Source: Chiloscyllium plagiosum
Lineage: Eukaryota
Length of the DNA: 64,000 nt
Reading direction: 5' to 3'
Assembly (NCBI RefSeq): GCF_004010195.1
Contig: NC_057717.1
Coordinates: 105,169,927 to 105,233,926, forward strand
Part shown: positions 1-55,049 of the stretch, in pieces
Layout of the letters: every line of letters starts with the position of its first letter
How positions within the stretch are numbered: position 1 is the stretch's first letter
Notes under the pieces: model-generated
Databases searched by the model: none
What the model saw: only the letters and a program-made list of their open reading frames with translations
What the model was told of the DNA's origin: nothing
Translations under genes and position numbers: made by a program

Positions 1-1053
1 CTCACTCTGATGGCCACCTTTGTGTGTGGCTTCATCAAGCTGTGCGTGGATCCCCGGTACGTAAACACCAAGTGTCACTACGTACTGAGGTTCTACCTGT
101 CCCCGGTGTTGCGTAGGATGGGCCTGGCCTCGCTGCCGCGGAACGCTCCGAGTAGTTAGGCCATTCTGTGTCACCTGTCCTTCATGGAGAAGTTTATAAA
201 GAAAAATACCTTTGACCACAAGTTCATCAGGAAGTGGTCAGCACGTAGTGTCCTTGAGACCCTTCGGGAAAAGGAGAGGGCGGATCCTATCGAGCGGTTC
301 CCTGAGCAGACTGTCAAAGCCATTTGGCAGAATGCCTCATCGCCAGAACTTTCCAACAAGCACCAAGACATGGCTTGGCTGGTGGTGAGAAGGGCTCTGC
401 CTGTGAGATCCTTTATGCACGCCCAGACTCTCAGCCGCACCGCACGCTGCCCTTGAAGCGGCTGCGGGGGGGACGAGACTGTCACACACCTCCTTCTGGA
501 ATGTGCCTATGCAGAGGACGTCTGGAGAGGAATGCAGTGGTTTTTGTCGAGGTTCGTTCCGAGCAGCGCCGTGACGCGGGACTCCGTGCTCTACGGTCTG
601 TTCCCCGGGACGCACACCGAGACGAACATCAACTATGCCCTGGAGGATCATCAACTCGGTGAAGGACGCTCTCTGGGTGGTCCGAAACCTGCTGATCTTC
701 CAGCTGAAGGAGTTGACCCCGACTGAGTGTTGCGGACTGGCACATTCCATGGTCCAGGTCTACGTGTTGAGGGATGCGCTGAAGCTTGGGGCAGCTGTCG
801 CCAAGGCGCGGTGGGGAAAGACCACTGTGTAAAGTCTGCCTGACTAATGAAGAACAGGGGGCCCATGCAGTCATTTGGGCTCTGCTGACGCCTCAGCTAA
901 TTATATGGGCATATGATCAAAAAATGGACAGACCTGTATAAAAATGATAAGTTTTGATCTCTGTATGTACATGTTTACATATGTATGGCATGACCAACTG
1001 TACAGACCATCAAATTATTTTATGAATAAAGTATATTTTTGAAATTAAAAAAA
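1..1053 (+). mobile_element. Tx1/L1-clade LINE, 3' end of ORF2 (C-terminal cysteine-rich zf-RVT region), 3'UTR and A-tail; pseudogenised
   Basis: Reads ...WQNASSPELSNKHQDMAWLVVRRALPVR...RCP*SGCGGDETVTHLLLEC...WRIINSVKDALW...WGKTTV*. Stops at 157 and 454, frameshift near 635. AATAAA at 1025 then an A-run at ~1046-1053. CpG-rich relative to the rest of the window. Confidence 0.85.
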
Positions 1054-4496: not shown

Positions 4497-6704
4497 CCAC
4501 ATTAGCCAACCTCCAGTCTTTTGGCACCTCACCTGTGACTATCGATGATACAAATATTTCAGTAAGAGGCCCAGAAATCACTTCCCTAGCATCCCACAGA
4601 GTTCTCGGGTACACCTGATCAGGTCCTGGGATTTATCCACCTTTATGCGTATAAAGACATCCAGCACTTACTCCTCTGTAATATGGACATTTTTCAAGAT
4701 GTCACCGTCTATTTCCCTACATTCTATATCTTCCATGTCCTTTTCTGCAGTAAATACTGATGCAAAATACTCGTTTAGTATCTTTTTCTGCGGCTCCACA
4801 CAAAAGCCTCCTTGCTGATCCTTGAGGGCCCTATTCTCTCCCTAGTTACCCTTTTGTTCTTAATGTATTTGTAAAAACCCTTTGGATTCTCCTTAACTCT
4901 ATTTGCCAAAGCTATCTCATGTTTTCTTTTTGCCCACCTGATTTCCCTCTTAAGTATACTCCTACTGCCCTTATACTCTTCTAAGGATTCACTCGATCAA
5001 TACCTGACATATGCTTCCTTCTTTTTCTTAACCAAACCCTCAATTTCTTTAGTCATCCAGCATTCCCTATACCTACCAGCCTTCCCTTTCACCCTAACAG
5101 GAATATACTTTCCCTGGACTCTTGTTATCTCATTTCTGAAGGCTTCCCATTTTTCAGACGTCCCTTTACGTGCCACTGTTTAAAAAAGGGAGTAAGGACT
5201 AGCCAGGGAACTCTGGACCAGTGAGCCTGACATCAGTGGTGGGCAAGTTGTTGGAGAGAATCCTGAGGGACAGGATGTACATATATTTGGAAACACATGG
5301 ACTGATTAGGGATAGTCAACATGGCTTTGTGCATGGGAAATCATGTTTTATAAACTTGATTGAGTTTTTTGAAGTAGTAACAAAGAGGATTGATGAGGGC
5401 AGTGTGGTAGATGTGCTCTATATGGACTTCAGTAAGGCATTCGACAAGGTTCCCCTTGGGAGATTGGTTAGCAAGGTTACAACTCATGGAATGCATGGAG
5501 AACTAGCCATTTGGATACAGAACTGGCTCAAAGGTAGAAGACATAGGGTGGTGATGGAGGGTTGTTTTTCAGACTGGAGGCCTGTGACCAGTGAAGTGCG
5601 ACAAGGATCGGTGCTGGGTCCACTTCTTTTCATCATTTATAAAAATGATTTGGATGTGAGCATAAGAGGTATAGTTAGTAAGTTTGCAGATGACTCAAAA
5701 ATTGGAGGTGTAATGGACAGCAAAGAAGGTTACCTCAGATTACAACGGGATCTTGGTCAGATTGTCCAATAGGCTGAGAAATGGCAGATGGAGTTTAATT
5801 CTGATAAATGCAGAGTCATTTTGGGAAAGCAAATCTTAGCAGGACTTATACACTTAATGGTAAGGTCCTAGGGAGTGTTGCTGAACAAAGAGACCTTGAA
5901 GTGCAGGTTCATAGCTCCTTGAAAGTGAAGTCGCAGGTAGATAGGATAATGAAGGAGGCATTTGGTATGCTTTCATTTATTGGTCCGAGTATTGAGTACA
6001 GGAGTTGGGAAGTCATGTGGCAGCTGCACAGGACATTGGTTAGGCCACTTTTGGAATATTGCGTGCAATTCTGGTCTCCTTCCTATCGGAAANNNNNNNN
6101 NNNNNNNNNNNNNNNNNNNNNNNNNNNNNNNNNNNNNNNNNNNNNNNNNNNNNNNNNNNNNNNNNNNNNNNNNNNNNNNNNNNNNNNNNNNNNNNNNNNN
6201 NNNNNNNNNNNNNNNNNNNNNNNTTGGAAAGATGTTGTGAAACTTCAAAGGCTTCAGAAAAGATTTACAAGGACGTTGCCAGGGTTAGAGGATTTGAGCT
6301 ATAGGGAGAGGCTGAACAGGCTGGGGCTGTTTTCCCTGGAGCGTCGGAGTCTGAGGGGTGACCTTATAGAGGTTTTCAAAATCAGAGGCATGGTTAGGAT
6401 TTTTCCTGGAGTGGGGGAGTCCAGAACTAGAGGGCATAGTTTTAGGATGAGAGGGGAAAGATAGAAGAGACCTAAGGGGCAGAAGGTGGTATGTGTATAG
6501 AATGAGCTGCCAGAGGAAGTGGTGGAGGCTAGTACAATTGCAACATTTAAAAGGCATTTGGATGGGTATATGAATAGGAAGGGTTTGGAGGGATATGGGT
6601 CAAGTGCTGGCAGGTGGGACTAGATTGGGTTGGGATATCTGGTCGGCATGGACGAATTAGACTGAAGGGTCTCTTACCATGCTGTACATCTCTATGACTG
6701 TATG
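4497..6704 (+). mobile_element. 5'-inverted CR1 LINE (4497-5169 minus, 5170-6704 plus) with 7-bp TSD ACATCTG
   Basis: Plus part encodes [49 protein letters not shown] and the 3' tail. Minus part is the ORF2 segment immediately upstream. TSD at 4490-4496 and 6705-6711 inside an older CR1 fragment. Confidence 0.9.
6093..6223. other. Assembly gap (N)
   Basis: Run of N. Confidence 1.
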
Positions 6705-21690: not shown

Positions 21691-21899
21691 TGAAGAAAGT
21701 GAGGAGTGCAGATACTGAAGATCCGAGTCAAAGAGTGTGCTGCTGGAAAAGCACAGCCAGTCAGGCAGCATCCGAGGAGCAGAAGAGTCGACGTTTTGGG
21801 CTTCCTGATGAAGGGTTTATGCCCGAAACATCGATTCTCCTGCTCCTCAGATGTTGCCTGACTGGCTATGCTTTTACAGCATCACACTCTTCGACTCCA
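21691..21899. mobile_element. Fold-back PLE pLTR mini-element with hammerhead core
   Basis: Inverted arms centred near 21800. Degenerate 13-bp TSD acaccatcaagca/acatcatctagca. Confidence 0.8.
21805..21832 (+). ncRNA. Minimal hammerhead ribozyme motif
   Basis: CUGAUGA-A-GGGU(UUAU)GCCC-GAAA-CAUC. Core intact; stem III variant CAUC instead of CGUC. Confidence 0.65.
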
Positions 21900-25091: not shown

Positions 25092-25741
25092 NNNNNNNNN
25101 NNNNNNNNNNNNNNNNNNNNNNNNNNNNNNNNNNNNNNNNNNNNNNNNNNNNNNNNNNNNNNNNNNNNNNNNNNNNNNNNNNNNNNNNNNNNNNNNNNNN
25201 NNNNNNNNNNNNNNNNNNNNNNNNNNNNNNNNNNNNNNNNNNNNNNNNNNNNNNNNNNNNNNNNNNNNNNNNNNNNNNNNNNNNNNNNNNNNNNNNNNNN
25301 NNNNNNNNNNNNNNNNNNNNNNNNNNNNNNNNNNNNNNNNNNNNNNNNNNNNNNNNNNNNNNNNNNNNNNNNNNNNNNNNNNNNNNNNNNNNNNNNNNNN
25401 NNNNNNNNNNNNNNNNNNNNNNNNNNNNNNNNNNNNNNNNNNNNNNNNNNNNNNNNNNNNNNNNNNNNNNNNNNNNNNNNNNNNNNNNNNNNNNNNNNNN
25501 NNNNNNNNNNNNNNNNNNNNNNNNNNNNNNNNNNNNNNNNNNNNNNNNNNNNNNNNNNNNNNNNNNNNNNNNNNNNNNNNNNNNNNNNNNNNNNNNNNNN
25601 NNNNNNNNNNNNNNNNNNNNNNNNNNNNNNNNNNNNNNNNNNNNNNNNNNNNNNNNNNNNNNNNNNNNNNNNNNNNNNNNNNNNNNNNNNNNNNNNNNNN
25701 NNNNNNNNNNNNNNNNNNNNNNNNNNNNNNNNNNNNNNNNN
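25092..25741. other. Assembly gap (N)
   Basis: Run of N. Confidence 1.
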
Positions 25742-33061: not shown

Positions 33062-34077
33062 CATCCTTTAAAGAAGGCATGAAGAGCAGAAATGTATCTC
33101 CAAGATCACATGGGGACCTTGTGGCTTTCTGGCTGGGTTTAATTGAGGTCCATAAGTTTAATTGCAGCATGCTTCATTCCTAGAACAGCAAATGAGTTTA
33201 CATTACTGCTTCCTACCTGACCTAAACTAGTCCAGGTCAAAAGCAGAGCCACAGACTTAGCAAATGGAAATATAGTCACAGCAGGAGAAAACTTTAGATT
33301 GCCGATCTCATCTTTGGGGGAAATTGCAAAATAGCAGACACGGGTTTAAATCATTTACTGTCACTTCTTTTTATGCACACAATAAGCAAATAGGATTCCT
33401 GTCATGAATAGACAAATTTCATCACTATATACAAATTGGAATTCTACAACCCAGCATACAATGCATAAGTTATTGAAAAACCAGTGCTTTATAAAAAAAA
33501 TGTGCTGAAGACTGGTTAGAAAATAATAATAAATTTGGTGGATTATCTTTTTAAGGTATAAGGAAGGGTTTGGTGCCTCTGCTAAAATCCTCATATCTTT
33601 TTCCTTACCTTCCACTAATTCCATCCCTCTTAAAATGAACTATGAGGATGTCTCCACAATTGATCTACCGAGTCCAGACTTGCCCCTTCCATAGACAAAT
33701 AAGTAGTGTGAACCAACCTGTTTGGTCATGTTATGAGATGTTTTGACACAAGTGAGACTTGAACTCAGACTTTCTGGCCAGGGACCTTATCATTGTGCCA
33801 CAAGAGCCCTGCCATGTACAGGAATTATGCCTCTGAACACCTGTTTGGCACTAGCATTATATGAAAATTGTTTGAAGAAAGACTGATCACAAAATAGTTT
33901 GGCCTGCAGCAAGTTCCATTGGCATTTTCTGCATCAAAATAAATAATGAGTGTGTTTAACAGACAGATAGTTTAGGGTAAAGTCTTCTAGGAGAAAGTGA
34001 GGACTGCAGATGCTGGAGATCAGAGCTGAAAATGTGTTGCTGAGCAGGTCAGGCAGCATCCAAGGAGCAGGAGAATC

Positions 34078-34105
34078 GACGTTTCGGGCATGAGCTCTTC
34101 TTCAG
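34078..34105 (-). ncRNA. Minimal hammerhead ribozyme motif (minus strand)
   Basis: Reverse complement CUGAAGA-A-GAGC(UCAU)GCCC-GAAA-CGUC; one mismatch in stem II. Confidence 0.7.
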
Positions 34106-34109
34106 GCTC

Positions 34110-34137
34110 CTGAAGAAGGGCTCATGCCCGAAACGTC
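34110..34137 (+). ncRNA. Minimal hammerhead ribozyme motif
   Basis: CUGAAGA-A-GGGC(UCAU)GCCC-GAAA-CGUC: intact core, perfect 4-bp stem II, palindromic ACGU stem III. Confidence 0.8.
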
Positions 34138-34206
34138 GATTCTCCTGCTCCTTGGATGCTGCCTGACCTGCTGCGCTTTTCCAGCAACACATTTTCAGAT
34201 AGTTTA

Positions 34207-34495
34207 GGGTGGCTTGGTGGCTCAGGGGTTAGCACTATAGCCTCACAGCACCAGGGACCAGGTTCGATTCCAGTCTCAGGTGACTGTCTGTGTGGAGTCT
34301 GCACATTCTCCCCATGGGTTTCCTCCCACAATCCAAAAGATGTGCAGGTTGGGTGGATTGGCCATGCTAAATTGCCCATAGTGTTAGGTGCGTTTGTCAG
34401 AGGGAGTTGGATCTGGGTGGATTACTCCTTGGAGAGTTGGTGTGGGCCTGTTGAGCCAAATGGCTTGTTTCCGTACTGTAGGGAATTTAATCTAA
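34207..34495 (+). mobile_element. HE1-type SINE
   Basis: ggtggctcaggggttagcacta..gggaccaggttcgattcc head, body and taatctaa tail. Confidence 0.85.
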
Positions 34496-35013: not shown

Positions 35014-35152
35014 CCCTTCTTCTTCCTGAAGAAGGGCCTGTGCCCGAAACGTCGAATCTCCTGTTCCCTGGATGCTGCCTGACCTGCTGTGCTGTTCCAG
35101 CAATAAAGTTTCAACTTTGATCTCCAGCATCTGCAGACCTCACTTTCTCCTC
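35014..35152 (+). mobile_element. PLE pLTR 3' end with vestigial inverted arm
   Basis: cccttcttc-ttcct-gaagaaggg mini-inversion, then the pLTR ending gatctccagcatctgcagacctcactttctcc. Confidence 0.85.
35026..35053 (+). ncRNA. Minimal hammerhead ribozyme motif
   Basis: UUC-CUGAAGA-A-GGGC(CUGU)GCCC-GAAA-CGUC-GAA. The flanks UUC/GAA can form stem I. Confidence 0.8.
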
Positions 35153-39256: not shown

Positions 39257-39606
39257 GGTAGAAAGTGAGGACTGCAGATGCTGGAGATCAGAGTCGAGAG
39301 TGTAGTTCTGGAAAAGCACAGCCAGTCAGGCAGCATCCGAGGAGCAGGAGAATCGATGTTTCGACCATAAACTTTTCACCAGGAATTAAGCTTGTAGGCC
39401 AAGGGGCTGAGAGATAAATGGAAGGGGGGAACAAGCATTCTCAGCTACCTTCCCCCATCCCCAGGCCCACCCCCCCCTCTCATTTATCTCTCAGCTTCCT
39501 TAGTCCACACCTCATTACTAACGAAGAGCTTATGCTCGAAATGTTAATTATCTTGCTCCTGGGATGCTGCCTGACTGGCTGTATTTTTCCAGCACCACAC
39601 TCTCTT
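39257..39606. mobile_element. Fold-back PLE pLTR element with 12-bp TSD AAAGTCTGCTCC
   Basis: Inverted arms around ~39450. TSD at 39245-39256 and 39607-39618. Two degenerate hammerhead cores. Confidence 0.85.
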
Positions 39607-43667: not shown

Positions 43668-44242
43668 TGAACCTATGGTAACTGGTTGTGCTTCTTGTTG
43701 CATGTGATGACATAAGCCTATGATAGCCTCCTTAGAAAAGCATGCTGGGCAGTCCTGGCTTAAGGTGACATAGAAATGGCTGCCTGTGAGTTTTAGGTTA
43801 CATAAAATTGGTGGAGAAGATTTTTAGCTGAAGCAGTAGCCTGTTTAATGTAGTATTAAAGTAAACCATAAGTTAGGACAATTGTAGCTCTGTAGACAGA
43901 ATGTATCCAAGGTAACAAGATTAAGATAGCACAGAAAGGGTCTGACAATGAGTACACAAAGGGTCCTGTTGCGTACATGCAGCTGCAGTTGTTTTTTACA
44001 CACAGCTGGATAAGGACACCATTAAGTATGCTGATAAAGTAATTCCATACCTAGCTGATTTAAAGTCTGAGATCCAGCACAAATAAATTTACTTTAGTTA
44101 AAATTCCCAGATAACCATAGTCATATATTTTGAATATGTTTTATATATATATATATATAAAGTCTCTTAAAAAGGACACAATAAGCATTAAAGCAATTCC
44201 ATTAAATTCCTATGAACAGACAGCCTTAGACAATAAGGAAAG

Positions 44243-44815
44243 GCAGATCCACACCCCCCACCAACCCAACCTCCACTCCCGGCACCTTCCCCTGCAACCG
44301 CAGGAGGTGCAAGACTTGCGCCCACACCTCCCCCCTCACCTCCCTCCAAGGCCCCAAAGGAAACTTCCATATCCGCCACAGATTCACCTGTACCTCCACA
44401 CATATCATCTATTGCACCCTCTGCACCCGATGTGGCCTCCTCTATATTGGGGAGACAGGCCGGCTACTTGCGGAGCGTTTCAGAGAACACCTATGGGACA
44501 CCCGGACCAACCAACCCAACCACCCTGTAGCTCAACATTTCAATTCCCCCGACCTCTCCGCCCCCCCCCCCGTCTGACCTATCACCCTCACCTTGACCTC
44601 TTTCCACCTATCACATTTCCGACGCCCCTCCCCCCAGTCCCTCCTCCCTACCTTTTATCTTCGCCTGCTGGACACACTTTCCTCATTCCTGAAGAAGGGC
44701 TTATGCCCGAAACGTCGATTCTCCTGTTCCCTGGATGCTGCCTGACCTGCTGCGCTTTTCCAGCAACACATTTTCAGCTCTGATCTCCAGCATCTGCAGA
44801 CCTCACTTTCTCCTC
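44243..44815 (+). mobile_element. Young Neptune-type PLE 3' fragment with 12-bp TSD CAATAAGGAAAG
   Basis: PGTFPCNRRRCKTC..IIYCTLCTRCGLLYIGETGRLLAERFREH..PVAQHF (GIY-YIG) followed by the pLTR. TSD at 44231-44242 and 44816-44827. Confidence 0.9.
44689..44716 (+). ncRNA. Minimal hammerhead ribozyme motif
   Basis: CUGAAGA-A-GGGC(UUAU)GCCC-GAAA-CGUC, directly downstream of the GIY-YIG coding region. Confidence 0.8.
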
Positions 44816-53080: not shown

Positions 53081-55049
53081 AATAAAGGAGGTACTGAAGG
53101 AGGTGACTCTAGAAATCGTGGATACATTGGTGATCATTTTCCAATGTTCTATAGATTCAGGATCAGTTCCTGCGGATTGGAGGGGGTTAATGTTGTCCCA
53201 CTTTTTAAGAAAGGAGGGAAAGAGAAAGCAGGGAATTATAGACCAGTTAGTCTGACCTCAGTGGTGGGAAAGATGCTGGAGTCTATTATAAAGGATGAAA
53301 TTACGACACATCTGGATAGCAGTAACAGGATAGGTCAGAGTCTGCATGGATTTATGAAAGGGAAATCATGCTTGACTAATCTTCTGGAATTTTTTGAGGA
53401 TGTAACTCTGAAGATNNNNNNNNNNNNNNNNNNNNNNNNNNNNNNNNNNNNNNNNNNNNNNNNNNNNNNNNNNNNNNNNNNNNNNNNNNNNNNNNNNNNN
53501 NNNNNNNNNNNNNNNNNNNNNNNNNNNNNNNNNNNNNNNNNNNNNNNNNNNNNNNNNNNNNNNNNNNNNNNNNNNNNNNNNNNNNNNNNNNNNNNNNNNN
53601 NNNNNNNNNNNNNNNNNNNNNNNNNNNNNNNNNNNNNNNNNNNNNNNNNNNNNNNNNNNNNNNNNNNNNNNNNNNNNNNNNNNNNNNNNNNNNNNNNNNN
53701 NNNNNNNNNNNNNNNNNNNNNNNNNNNNNNNNNNNNNNNNNNNNNNNNNNNNNNNNNNNNNNNNNNNNNNNNNNNNNNNNNNNNNNNNNNNNNNNNNNNN
53801 NNNNNNNNNNNNNNNNNNNNNNNNNNNNNNNNNNNNNNNNNNNNNNNNNNNNNNNNNNNNNNNNNNNNNNNNNNNNNNNNNNNNNNNNNNNNNNNNNNNN
53901 NNNNNNNNNNNNNNNNNNNNNNNCACATGGTATTGGGGGCAAAATACTGACTTGGATTGAAAATTGGTTGGCTGACAGGAAACAAAGAGTAGTGATAAAC
54001 GGCTCCTTTTCGGAATGGCAGGCGGTGACCAGTGGGGTACCTCAGGGATCAGTGCTGGGACCTCAGCTTTTTACAATATACATTAATGATATAGATGATG
54101 GCATTAAAAGTAATATTAGCAAATTTGCTGATACAAAGCTGGGTGGCAGGGTGAAATGTGAGGAGGATGTTAGGAGATTACAGGGTGACCTGGACAAGTT
54201 AGGTGAGTGGACAGTTGCATGGCAGATGCAATTTAATGTGGATAAATATGTGGTTATCTACTTTGGTGGCAAGAACAAGAAGGCAGATTACTACCTAAAT
54301 GGAGTCAAGTTAGGTAAAGGGGCAGTACAATGAGATCTAGGTGTTCTTGTACATCAGTCAATGAAAGCAAGCATGCAGGTACAGCAGGCAGTGAAGAAAG
54401 CTAATAGCATGCTGGCCTTCATAACAAGAGGAATTGCATATAGAAGCAAAGAGGTTCTTCTGCAGCTGTACAGGGCCCTGGCGAGACCGCACATGGAATA
54501 TTGTGTGCAGTTTTGGTCTCCAAATTTGAGGAAAGACATTCTGGCCATTGAGGGAGTGCAGCGTAGGTTCACAAAGTCAATTCCCGGAATGGTGGGACTA
54601 TCTTACGTTGAAAAATTGGAGCGACTGGGCATGTATACCCTTGAGGTGAGAAGGCTGAGAGGGGATCTGATTGAGACGTATAAGATTATTAAAGGATTGG
54701 ACACTCTGGAAGCAGGAAGCATGTTTCCGCTGATGGATGAGTCCCAAACCAGAGGACACAGTTTAAAAATAAGGGATAGGCCATTTAGAACAGAGTTGAG
54801 GAGAAACTTCTTCACCCAGAGAGTGGTGAGTGTGTGGAATGCTCTGCCCCGGAAGGCTGTGGAGGCCAAGTCTCTGGATACTTTCAAGAAAGAGTTGGAT
54901 AGAACTCTTAAGGATAGTGGAATCAAGGGTTATGGGGATAAGGCAGGAACAGGATACTGATTGAGGGTGATCAGCCATGATCATAATGAATGCTGGTGCT
55001 GGCTCAAAGGGCAGAATGGCCTACTCCTGCACCTATTGTCTATTGTCTA
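53081..55049 (+). mobile_element. 5'-truncated, relatively young CR1 LINE (RT to 3' tail; contains N-gap)
   Basis: NYRPVSLTSVVGKMLE..HGFMKGKSCLTNLLEFF, VPQGSVLGPQLFTIYIND..KFAD, MEYCVQFWSP, RRNFFTQRVV; (ctattgt)n tail. Confidence 0.92.
53416..53923. other. Assembly gap (N)
   Basis: Run of N. Confidence 1.

Follow-up and report, generated by a model that had tools for sequence, protein, structure and literature searches.

Positions 33979-34195 of the window (that is, the whole 64,000-nucleotide stretch of Chiloscyllium plagiosum DNA analysed here) are best explained as a dead-on-arrival, severely 5'-truncated insertion of an endonuclease-bearing Penelope-like element (PLE) in a shark-type genome, a reading to which we assign a probability of roughly 0.85. 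The insert contains solely the segment that carries the hammerhead and the start of reverse transcription (RT), present twice in inverted, head-to-head order within a 15-bp target-site duplication (TSD). The nearest known counterpart of the fold-back is the standard endonuclease-positive PLE insertion unit with its minimal hammerhead, and the fold-back is not a retrozyme, a MITE or a miRNA gene; its hammerhead motifs are passengers of the terminal PLE segment. The locus is ordinary repeat debris and does not merit an entry as a new mobile element with a ribozyme, and its value lies in the clean natural record of PLE integration that it offers.

Anatomy of the fold-back and its hammerhead motifs

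The insertion measures 217 bp and consists of two inverted arms with a minimal hammerhead core in each, and its bounds are set by the exact 15-nt direct repeat that brackets them. A first-pass annotation of this DNA had described a fold-back of ~210 bp with arms in inverted order, which we recover at 217 bp, together with a 15-bp direct repeat in the flanks, which is indeed present, and a left boundary at 33991, which does not hold because the insertion begins further left, at 33979. The features of the insertion and of the parent-type copy in the same window are as follows (window numbering, with the basis of each assignment in brackets).

33964-33978, no strand: left TSD copy, CAGATAGTTTAGGGT, 15 bp (exact direct repeat)
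33979-34025, minus strand: 'tail' of the long arm, 47 nt past the end of the short arm, arm positions ~+89 to +136 (30-copy alignment, arm coordinates)
34026-34105, minus strand: body of the long arm, the sense orientation being the minus strand (blastn, arm positions -1..125)
34078-34105, minus strand: hammerhead core CTGAAGA-A-GAGC-TCAT-GCCC-GAAA-CG-TC (motif search and the hallmarks of minimal hammerheads given in the available part of PMC4209133)
34106-34109, no strand: junction GCTC between the 5'-truncated arms (sequence)
34110-34137, plus strand: hammerhead core CTGAAGA-A-GGGC-TCAT-GCCC-GAAA-CG-TC, predicted to cleave after GTC at 34137 (motif search)
34110-34195, plus strand: short, tail-less arm ending ...CAACACATTTT, the inner RT start region, ~+88 (alignment, arm coordinates)
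34196-34210, no strand: right TSD copy, CAGATAGTTTAGGGT, 15 bp (exact direct repeat)
44230-44815, plus strand: parent-type copy with the 3' end of the PLE open reading frame (ORF; Zn-finger linker and GIY-YIG), 3' UTR, hammerhead and tail (sequence, Pfam)

The arms pair over 64 nt (34043-34106 with 34109-34172; 98% complementary) and over a second, perfect inverted pair of 17 nt (34026-34042 with 34182-34198). Counted from the CUGAAGA box, the short arm ends at the inner RT start (~+88) and the long arm at the outer one (~+126 to +136), where the sense-orientation end of the tail reads ...CTCACTTTCTCCTAGAAGACTTT. Both arms stop 1-3 nt upstream of the hammerhead core and meet head to head. Relative to the other copies in the 30-copy alignment, the long (left) arm lacks 9 nt adjoining 34042. 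The inequality of the arms, this 9-nt deletion and a G-to-A change in the minus-strand core are features absent from the first-pass annotation. As RNA, the fold-back is predicted to form one hairpin of -164.7 kcal/mol (z = -18.4), which none of 200 shuffles equalled.

The pattern CTGAAGA..GAAACGTC has four matches in the window, two of which lie in the fold-back (expectation from 100 shuffles, 0), and the conserved core (CUGANGA ... GAAA ... UH) is found on both strands of the fold-back, at 34110-34137 (plus) and 34078-34105 (minus), as the annotation had claimed. The plus-strand core has an extra A after A9, a G10.1-C11.1 pair, a GGGC/GCCC helix II and a palindromic ACGU; in the minus-strand core, the G-to-A change creates an A-C mismatch that breaks the second pair of helix II. 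In the available part of the study of metazoan PLE minimal type I hammerheads by Cervera and de la Pena (2014, PMC4209133), the class is marked by one additional nucleotide between A9 and G10.1, by pairing of G10.1 with C11.1, by a helix II no shorter than 4 bp and by a palindromic 15.2-16.2, with a short helix I and a palindromic ACGU where helix III is expected. The proposal that the two cores fit this class is sustained by their CUGANGA, G10.1-C11.1 and ACGU hallmarks; measured against that same part of the study, they further share the extra nucleotide, the 4-bp helix II, GAAA and probably the short helix I, and they differ in that the AUUC strand is mostly lost, helix II of the minus-strand copy is broken and no Rfam model matches. 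Since the palindromic ACGU takes the place of helix III, action as a dimer is implied for such ribozymes (PMC4209133, PMC6765202, as far as the available parts of both go). A second hammerhead family in the sampled DNA has the same architecture, with a compensating GGAGC/GCUCC together with AGCU.

The annotation had also proposed a check with hammerhead covariance models, and this came out negative: Rfam models run over the whole window at gathering score gave no hammerhead match, and at E<=10 on 33800-34400 (601 nt) no hammerhead was matched either, the only matches being sub-threshold miRNA hairpins. A missing match is not surprising for a hammerhead form that lacks helix III, yet it remains a negative result.

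In the parent copy, helix I pairs AUUC with GAUU (2-3 pairs), and in a sister subfamily the partner is GAAU (4 pairs); in the fold-back, the 5' strand (AUUC) is reduced to 1-2 of its native nucleotides. The annotation had envisaged a rod-like RNA that pairs a ribozyme with its own antisense, and the computed folding agrees, with a cost of +46.3 kcal/mol for freeing one core from the full hairpin. Given this cost and the loss of most of the helix I 5' strand, a transcript of the whole unit should not cleave, and the ribozymes in such a two-arm transcript would, according to the folding model, be locked in a duplex of ~85 bp and inactive.

The parent element and its copies in the genome

The parent-type copy at 44230-44815 has its hammerhead at 44689-44716, and the hammerhead, the downstream segment and the tail together make up 44689-44815, directly after the end of the ORF. 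The window's own ORF copy scores 19.2 bits for Pfam GIY-YIG, below the cut-off of 22.6; its longer homologues include a protein of 902 amino acids (P0007) that scores 42.4 bits for RVT_1 and 32.4 bits for GIY-YIG, and the nearest named homologues of the PLE ORF are from sharks and a skate. At another locus (L017), the sense arm passes through the tail and ~45 nt further on reaches the ATG of the ORF, the N terminus of which aligns by tblastn with residues 11-152 of P0007 (E 4e-12). Given this continuity and the arrangement at 44689-44815, the arm can be identified as the hammerhead-bearing PLE leader, repeated at the 3' end of the element. Window 44230-44815, P0007 and L017 thus document an origin from an element with a reverse transcriptase plus a GIY-YIG domain at the C terminus, and the inverted PLE arrangement that the annotation had put forward is confirmed, the arms being the terminal segment of such an element. 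Searched against the 3.56-Gb genome, the full-length PLE protein gave 162,828 first-look candidates, of which 50 were scored; one of these 50 had an open frame of 893 amino acids without stops. ARAGORN, run on the neighbouring repeat, found no tRNA-like gene.

With the whole 217 nt as query, 2,848 first-look candidates were obtained, and the 40 that were scored matched over nearly the full length (87-94% identity). The 30 loci that were aligned are the best matches, picked by their likeness to the query, and the uniform position of the junction among them is biased for that reason. The plan common to these loci is a duplication, a tail-less antisense arm, the centre, a tailed sense arm and the duplication again. 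In 27 of the 30, a TSD of 9-20 bp is present that differs from locus to locus, and 27 of these selected loci likewise have one tailed and one tail-less arm; in the remaining 3, both arms are tailed, no clear duplication is seen and 2 run into the PLE body. An apparent confinement of the A variant of helix II to tailed arms (7/7 aligned) was set aside as an artefact of picking loci by likeness to the query.

An unselected sample of 338 kb, made up of the window itself, four blocks of 50 kb each and the DNA flanking the loci, contained 54 arms, among them 14 adjacent head-to-head pairs. All 14 pairs join one tailed to one tail-less arm (none tail-to-tail; hereafter the one-tail rule), and in all 14 one arm ends at +76..+97. 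At least one arm reaches the start of the core in 13 of the 14; both cores are kept in only 3, one arm is cut further in 10 and both are in 1. As the inner cut points vary in this way among unselected pairs, the arrangement with two ribozymes back to back is an extreme in a graded series. Some solo arms carry an inverted piece of 9-25 nt at their 5' end (window 35017-35152; BL031 21996; L021a 652), and extra ribozyme-derived snippets in either orientation occur in some centres.

Genome-wide, the pattern CCCTTCTTCAG-N0-14-CTGAAGAAGGG has 6,660 exact loci (reversed control, 0). Among the first 50 of these loci listed, a hand count gave 34 distinct centres, that is, 30 singletons and the recurrent GAATC/GATTC (10), GAATSATTC (5), GAATTC (3) and CCATTC (2); the first three of these recurrent centres would be expected from two cDNAs that end at one template end. 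The GCTC centre of the window is common to L007 and L023, whose duplications differ, and within the class with the helix II G/A variant, among the matches listed, the GCTC-centred match is the window's own locus. Head-to-tail joins (a tail with the next core within 24 nt) amount to 43 loci with mixed spacers, against the 6,660 head-to-head.

A load of 1.85 variants per 86 nt marks the arms as young. Variants common to both arms of one locus numbered 5 against 2.56 expected, a value reached in 173 of 2,000 permutations, so that there is no excess. The helix II variant is distributed as 1,099 G/G, 46 G/A and 2 A/A loci, a pattern that is compatible with later mutation and is uninformative on whether one or two templates were used.

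Route of insertion and competing explanations

The insertion can be envisioned to have proceeded in four steps: the PLE protein would cut both target strands with a stagger of ~15 bp; each 3'-OH would then prime cDNA synthesis on the PLE RNA, from one or the other of its two internal start sites; both cDNAs would be extended as far as the template goes, its 5' end lying at the 5' edge of hammerhead helix I; and the two cDNA ends would be joined, leaving a few odd bases at the centre. What we observe is the anatomy of the locus, duplications that are independent of each other, the one-tail rule and centres that vary; that both strands primed a cDNA, that synthesis ran off the template and that the cDNA ends were joined is what we infer. 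The outer arm ends fall at +76..+97 and at +110..+136, which correspond to the two RT start regions, with each pair using one of each. Purified anole PLE protein cleaves and extends both target strands in vitro, and the anole PLE has two adjacent internal RT start sites, the tail being the stretch between them (PMC11167929); two adjacent start sites of this kind would account for the two kinds of outer arm end. Ribozyme mutants of the anole PLE insert normally (PMC11167929). PLE insertions are described, in the part of PMC8557442 available to us, as 5'-truncated, as often having a second copy, inverted and likewise 5'-truncated, next to their 5' end, and as carrying a one-sided tail of 30-40 bp, to which the 47-nt tail of the long arm corresponds.

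A different route for the same element, with the same by-product status for the fold-back, would be a snap-back in which a single cDNA, on reaching the end of the template, folds on itself or changes over to the nascent cDNA and is extended backwards along it. This is unlikely without being far-fetched: it suits the micro-inverted pieces of 9-25 nt on the solo arms named above better than two primed cDNAs do, and it would accommodate the centres that hold ribozyme-derived snippets in either orientation. Yet copying back along a cDNA should reach the cDNA's 5' end at the tail, whereas one arm in each of the 14 unselected pairs ends at +76..+97, as tail-less solo arms do, and extension of both strands by the anole protein in vitro (PMC11167929) also favours priming from both target strands over this route. 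The first-pass annotation had gone further and seen in the locus a tiny palindromic mobile unit, possibly a self-propagating family. On that explanation, which we consider very improbable, fold-back masters would be transcribed as hairpins and copied whole by the PLE reverse transcriptase, so that an architecture common to 6,660 exact matches and to the 2,848 first-look candidates that the 217-nt query gave, the youth of the copies, the recurrence of some centres (GAATC/GATTC in 10 of the first 50 listed) and the shared GCTC centre of L007 and L023 would all find a place. The same loci speak against it, given that 34 of the centres among the 50 listed are distinct and 27 of the 30 best-matching loci have duplications of their own: because centres and duplications differ from locus to locus, these are separate integration events and not copies of a palindromic master. 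The inner ends are moreover continuous, with both cores in only 3/14 unselected pairs; the outer ends fall on RT start sites shared with solo arms and long PLE fragments; the arms of one locus have no excess of common variants (5 against 2.56 expected; 173/2,000 permutations); and a hairpin of -165 kcal/mol would be a poor template. A count of copies with an identical centre, which the annotation had suggested as the way to tell a family from one-off PLE integration products, falls largely on the side of the latter, the junctions being for the most part unique.

Terminal inverted symmetry and flanking direct repeats are also what a MITE would have, and weak matches to miRNA models (for example, mir-680 with 37.9 bits, where the gathering score is 104) might be read as pointing to a gene for a hairpin RNA, for instance a miRNA precursor, yet we regard either as scarcely credible. 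The duplications vary in length (9-20 bp), a tail at just one of the two ends makes these unequal, and the centre is variable, whereas in a MITE the terminal inverted repeats are equal, the duplication is of one set length and the interior does not vary; all Rfam matches lie far below gathering score, as is typical of any long hairpin; and the arms are the terminal segment of an element with a reverse transcriptase and a GIY-YIG domain, which speaks against a MITE and a miRNA gene alike.

The common arm end and comparison with known systems

Both arms end within -14..0 of the core at 6,660 loci, against 60 loci for -26..-12 and 82 for +14..+28, an enrichment of ~100-fold at the 5' edge of the hammerhead over neighbouring windows that is to be read from these exact-pattern counts, since the histogram of 5' starts is inflated at -4, where alignments break off at the divergent upstream sequence of older subfamilies. 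Helix I (AUUC) has its first nucleotide at this common end. At L017, L026, C1:11148357 and C1:135636158, a PLE body that extends into the ORF leader begins at the edge, with an inverted arm next to it. Given that 17,778 exact arms reach at least 12 nt upstream and that 152 of the 315 arms continuing into the ORF leader have TCATTC upstream, the edge is a preferred and not an obligatory end. Few junctions (82 loci) lie close to the cleavage site, and self-cleaved RNA would therefore seldom have served both arms as template.

With slightly better than even confidence, we read the common end as the 5' end of a unit-length RNA, on which RT would start at the 5'-proximal copy of the start sites; a protein or a structure that blocks the enzyme is an alternative cause. 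TCATTC at -6..-1, together with a T-rich stretch ~30 nt upstream, is an arrangement that we take to resemble an initiator-plus-TATA core promoter. More tentatively, the pile-up might mark the cap site of the PLE RNA, in which case frequent run-off after 90-135 nt could scatter thousands of strong-stop-like mini-insertions, with near-perfect hairpins of ~85 bp, made of the ribozyme and RT-start segment of the element, arising when both target strands do so and, if transcribed, acting as a double-stranded RNA (dsRNA) brake on the element. As PLE reverse transcription starts internally, this cap-site reading would entail frequent starts at the 5'-proximal copy of the start sites. If the common end is the RNA cap site, the 5' boundary of the PLE transcript becomes directly testable and the abundance of tiny hairpins in such genomes would be explained. 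Inverted Penelope copies have been proposed as a source of dsRNA and siRNA in flies (PMC3681739, in its available part), and it is plausible that shark fold-backs may serve as a source of siRNA.

Other origins of the -4 edge were considered and set aside: the sequence has no AG for an intron acceptor and no second core for a second ribozyme cleavage, and had a hairpin primed itself on a TTC/GAA micro-repeat, CTGAAG would not be intact in both arms.

In LINE-1 twin-priming, both target strands prime cDNA and an inverted 5' part comes to lie within one TSD, the two parts being different, adjoining segments of one RNA. The two PLE arms, in contrast, are copies of one and the same segment, with a defined internal start site for each. 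Closer counterparts are the insertion units of endonuclease-positive PLEs, which, in the available part of Craig et al. (2021, PMC8557442), have in common with the locus their 5' truncation, an inverted copy abutting the 5' end, a one-sided tail, a hammerhead in the repeated terminal segment and a parent with a reverse transcriptase and GIY-YIG. In the shark fold-back, by comparison, both copies are only 87-129 nt long and comprise the hammerhead and the RT-start segment, with a tail of 37-47 nt, and the PLE family concerned has no name in the literature compared, which for PMC8557442 means its available part.

Anole Poseidon (Frangieh et al. 2024, PMC11167929) shares the two internal RT start sites downstream of the hammerhead and the extension of both strands. 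Hammerhead cleavage is dispensable there, and junctions at the cleavage site are rare here (82 loci); the anole ORF starts inside the hammerhead, whereas the shark ATG lies ~45 nt after the tail; and head-to-head joining and a pile-up at the 5' edge are not reported in the main text of PMC11167929. The one-tail rule, the rarity of cleavage-site junctions and the ~100-fold edge enrichment are in line with the only in vitro study of a PLE enzyme, to which they add a little at genome scale.

Non-LTR (animal) retrozymes, as presented in the available part of a preprint by Li et al. (2026), are tandem hammerhead repeats thought to derive from PLE pLTRs, and they share with the fold-back a ribozyme-bearing PLE terminal segment and dependence on a PLE enzyme. 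Theirs are arranged head to tail and give circular RNAs, whereas the fold-back is a single head-to-head pair. The resemblance to retrozymes and viroid-like RNAs that the first-pass annotation had drawn is accordingly not borne out by the genome, in which head-to-tail joins of the ribozyme unit are confined to the 43 loci with mixed spacers and do not form tandem repeats. Arrays are formed by a sister subfamily (CCTGT loop), with a period of 194-224 bp.

Fold-backs and repeats within the window

The main fold-back (window 33979-34195) was inserted at the boundary of a different interspersed repeat (window 34211-34480), which includes a box resembling GGTTCGATTCC. ARAGORN detected no tRNA gene in this repeat, which we take to be, probably, a tRNA-derived SINE.

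Two further fold-backs lie in the window, with arm positions counted from the start of the hammerhead core. The first (window 21694-21886) belongs to an older subfamily, which has a CTGATGA core and shares about 83% identity with the reference arm; its tailed arm is truncated within the hammerhead, at +16, and its tail-less arm extends to -3. The second, longer fold-back (window 39260-39599) has its sense arm on the minus strand, and its arms meet only after about 60 nt more sequence upstream of the hammerhead, which shows that arms can join far from the hot spot, too.

The window sequence holds three runs of N, in which the letters are either withheld or masked:

Window 6093-6223, 131 bases
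Window 25092-25741, 650 bases
Window 53416-53923, 508 bases

Solo arm and arrays of the CCTGT-loop subfamily

The CCTGT-loop subfamily, sister to that of the main fold-back's arms, is represented at window 35017-35152 by a solo tailed arm, which is preceded by an inverted piece of just 9 nt, CCCTTCTTC; the arrangement looks as if the cDNA end had snapped back or switched template. Head-to-tail arrays of this subfamily, with a period of 194-224 bp and units that each span the hammerhead and continue into the ORF leader, appear among the places listed for the genome:

C8:24157762-24158518, head-to-tail array
C1:16163062-16163430, head-to-tail array
C7:100438550-100438918, head-to-tail array

The genome that carries the main fold-back also holds this retrozyme-like tandem arrangement.

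Nested elements and a second hammerhead family

Further mini-arms were found inside or beside the leader of a Penelope-like element (PLE) at two of the 30 loci best matching the main fold-back:

L026 1830-1922, mini-arm
L015 1345-1445, mini-arm

Both make up nested or clustered PLE debris, in agreement with reports that PLEs tend to integrate within one another.

Sampled-block loci (that is, DNA not selected for the back-to-back junction) contain a second PLE hammerhead family (for example, cores CTGATGA-A-GGAGC..GCTCC-GAAAGCTA), whose helix II differs and whose palindrome reads AGCU; it has an A at the cleavage site and a covarying helix I of 3 bp (CAC/GUG versus UAC/GUA).
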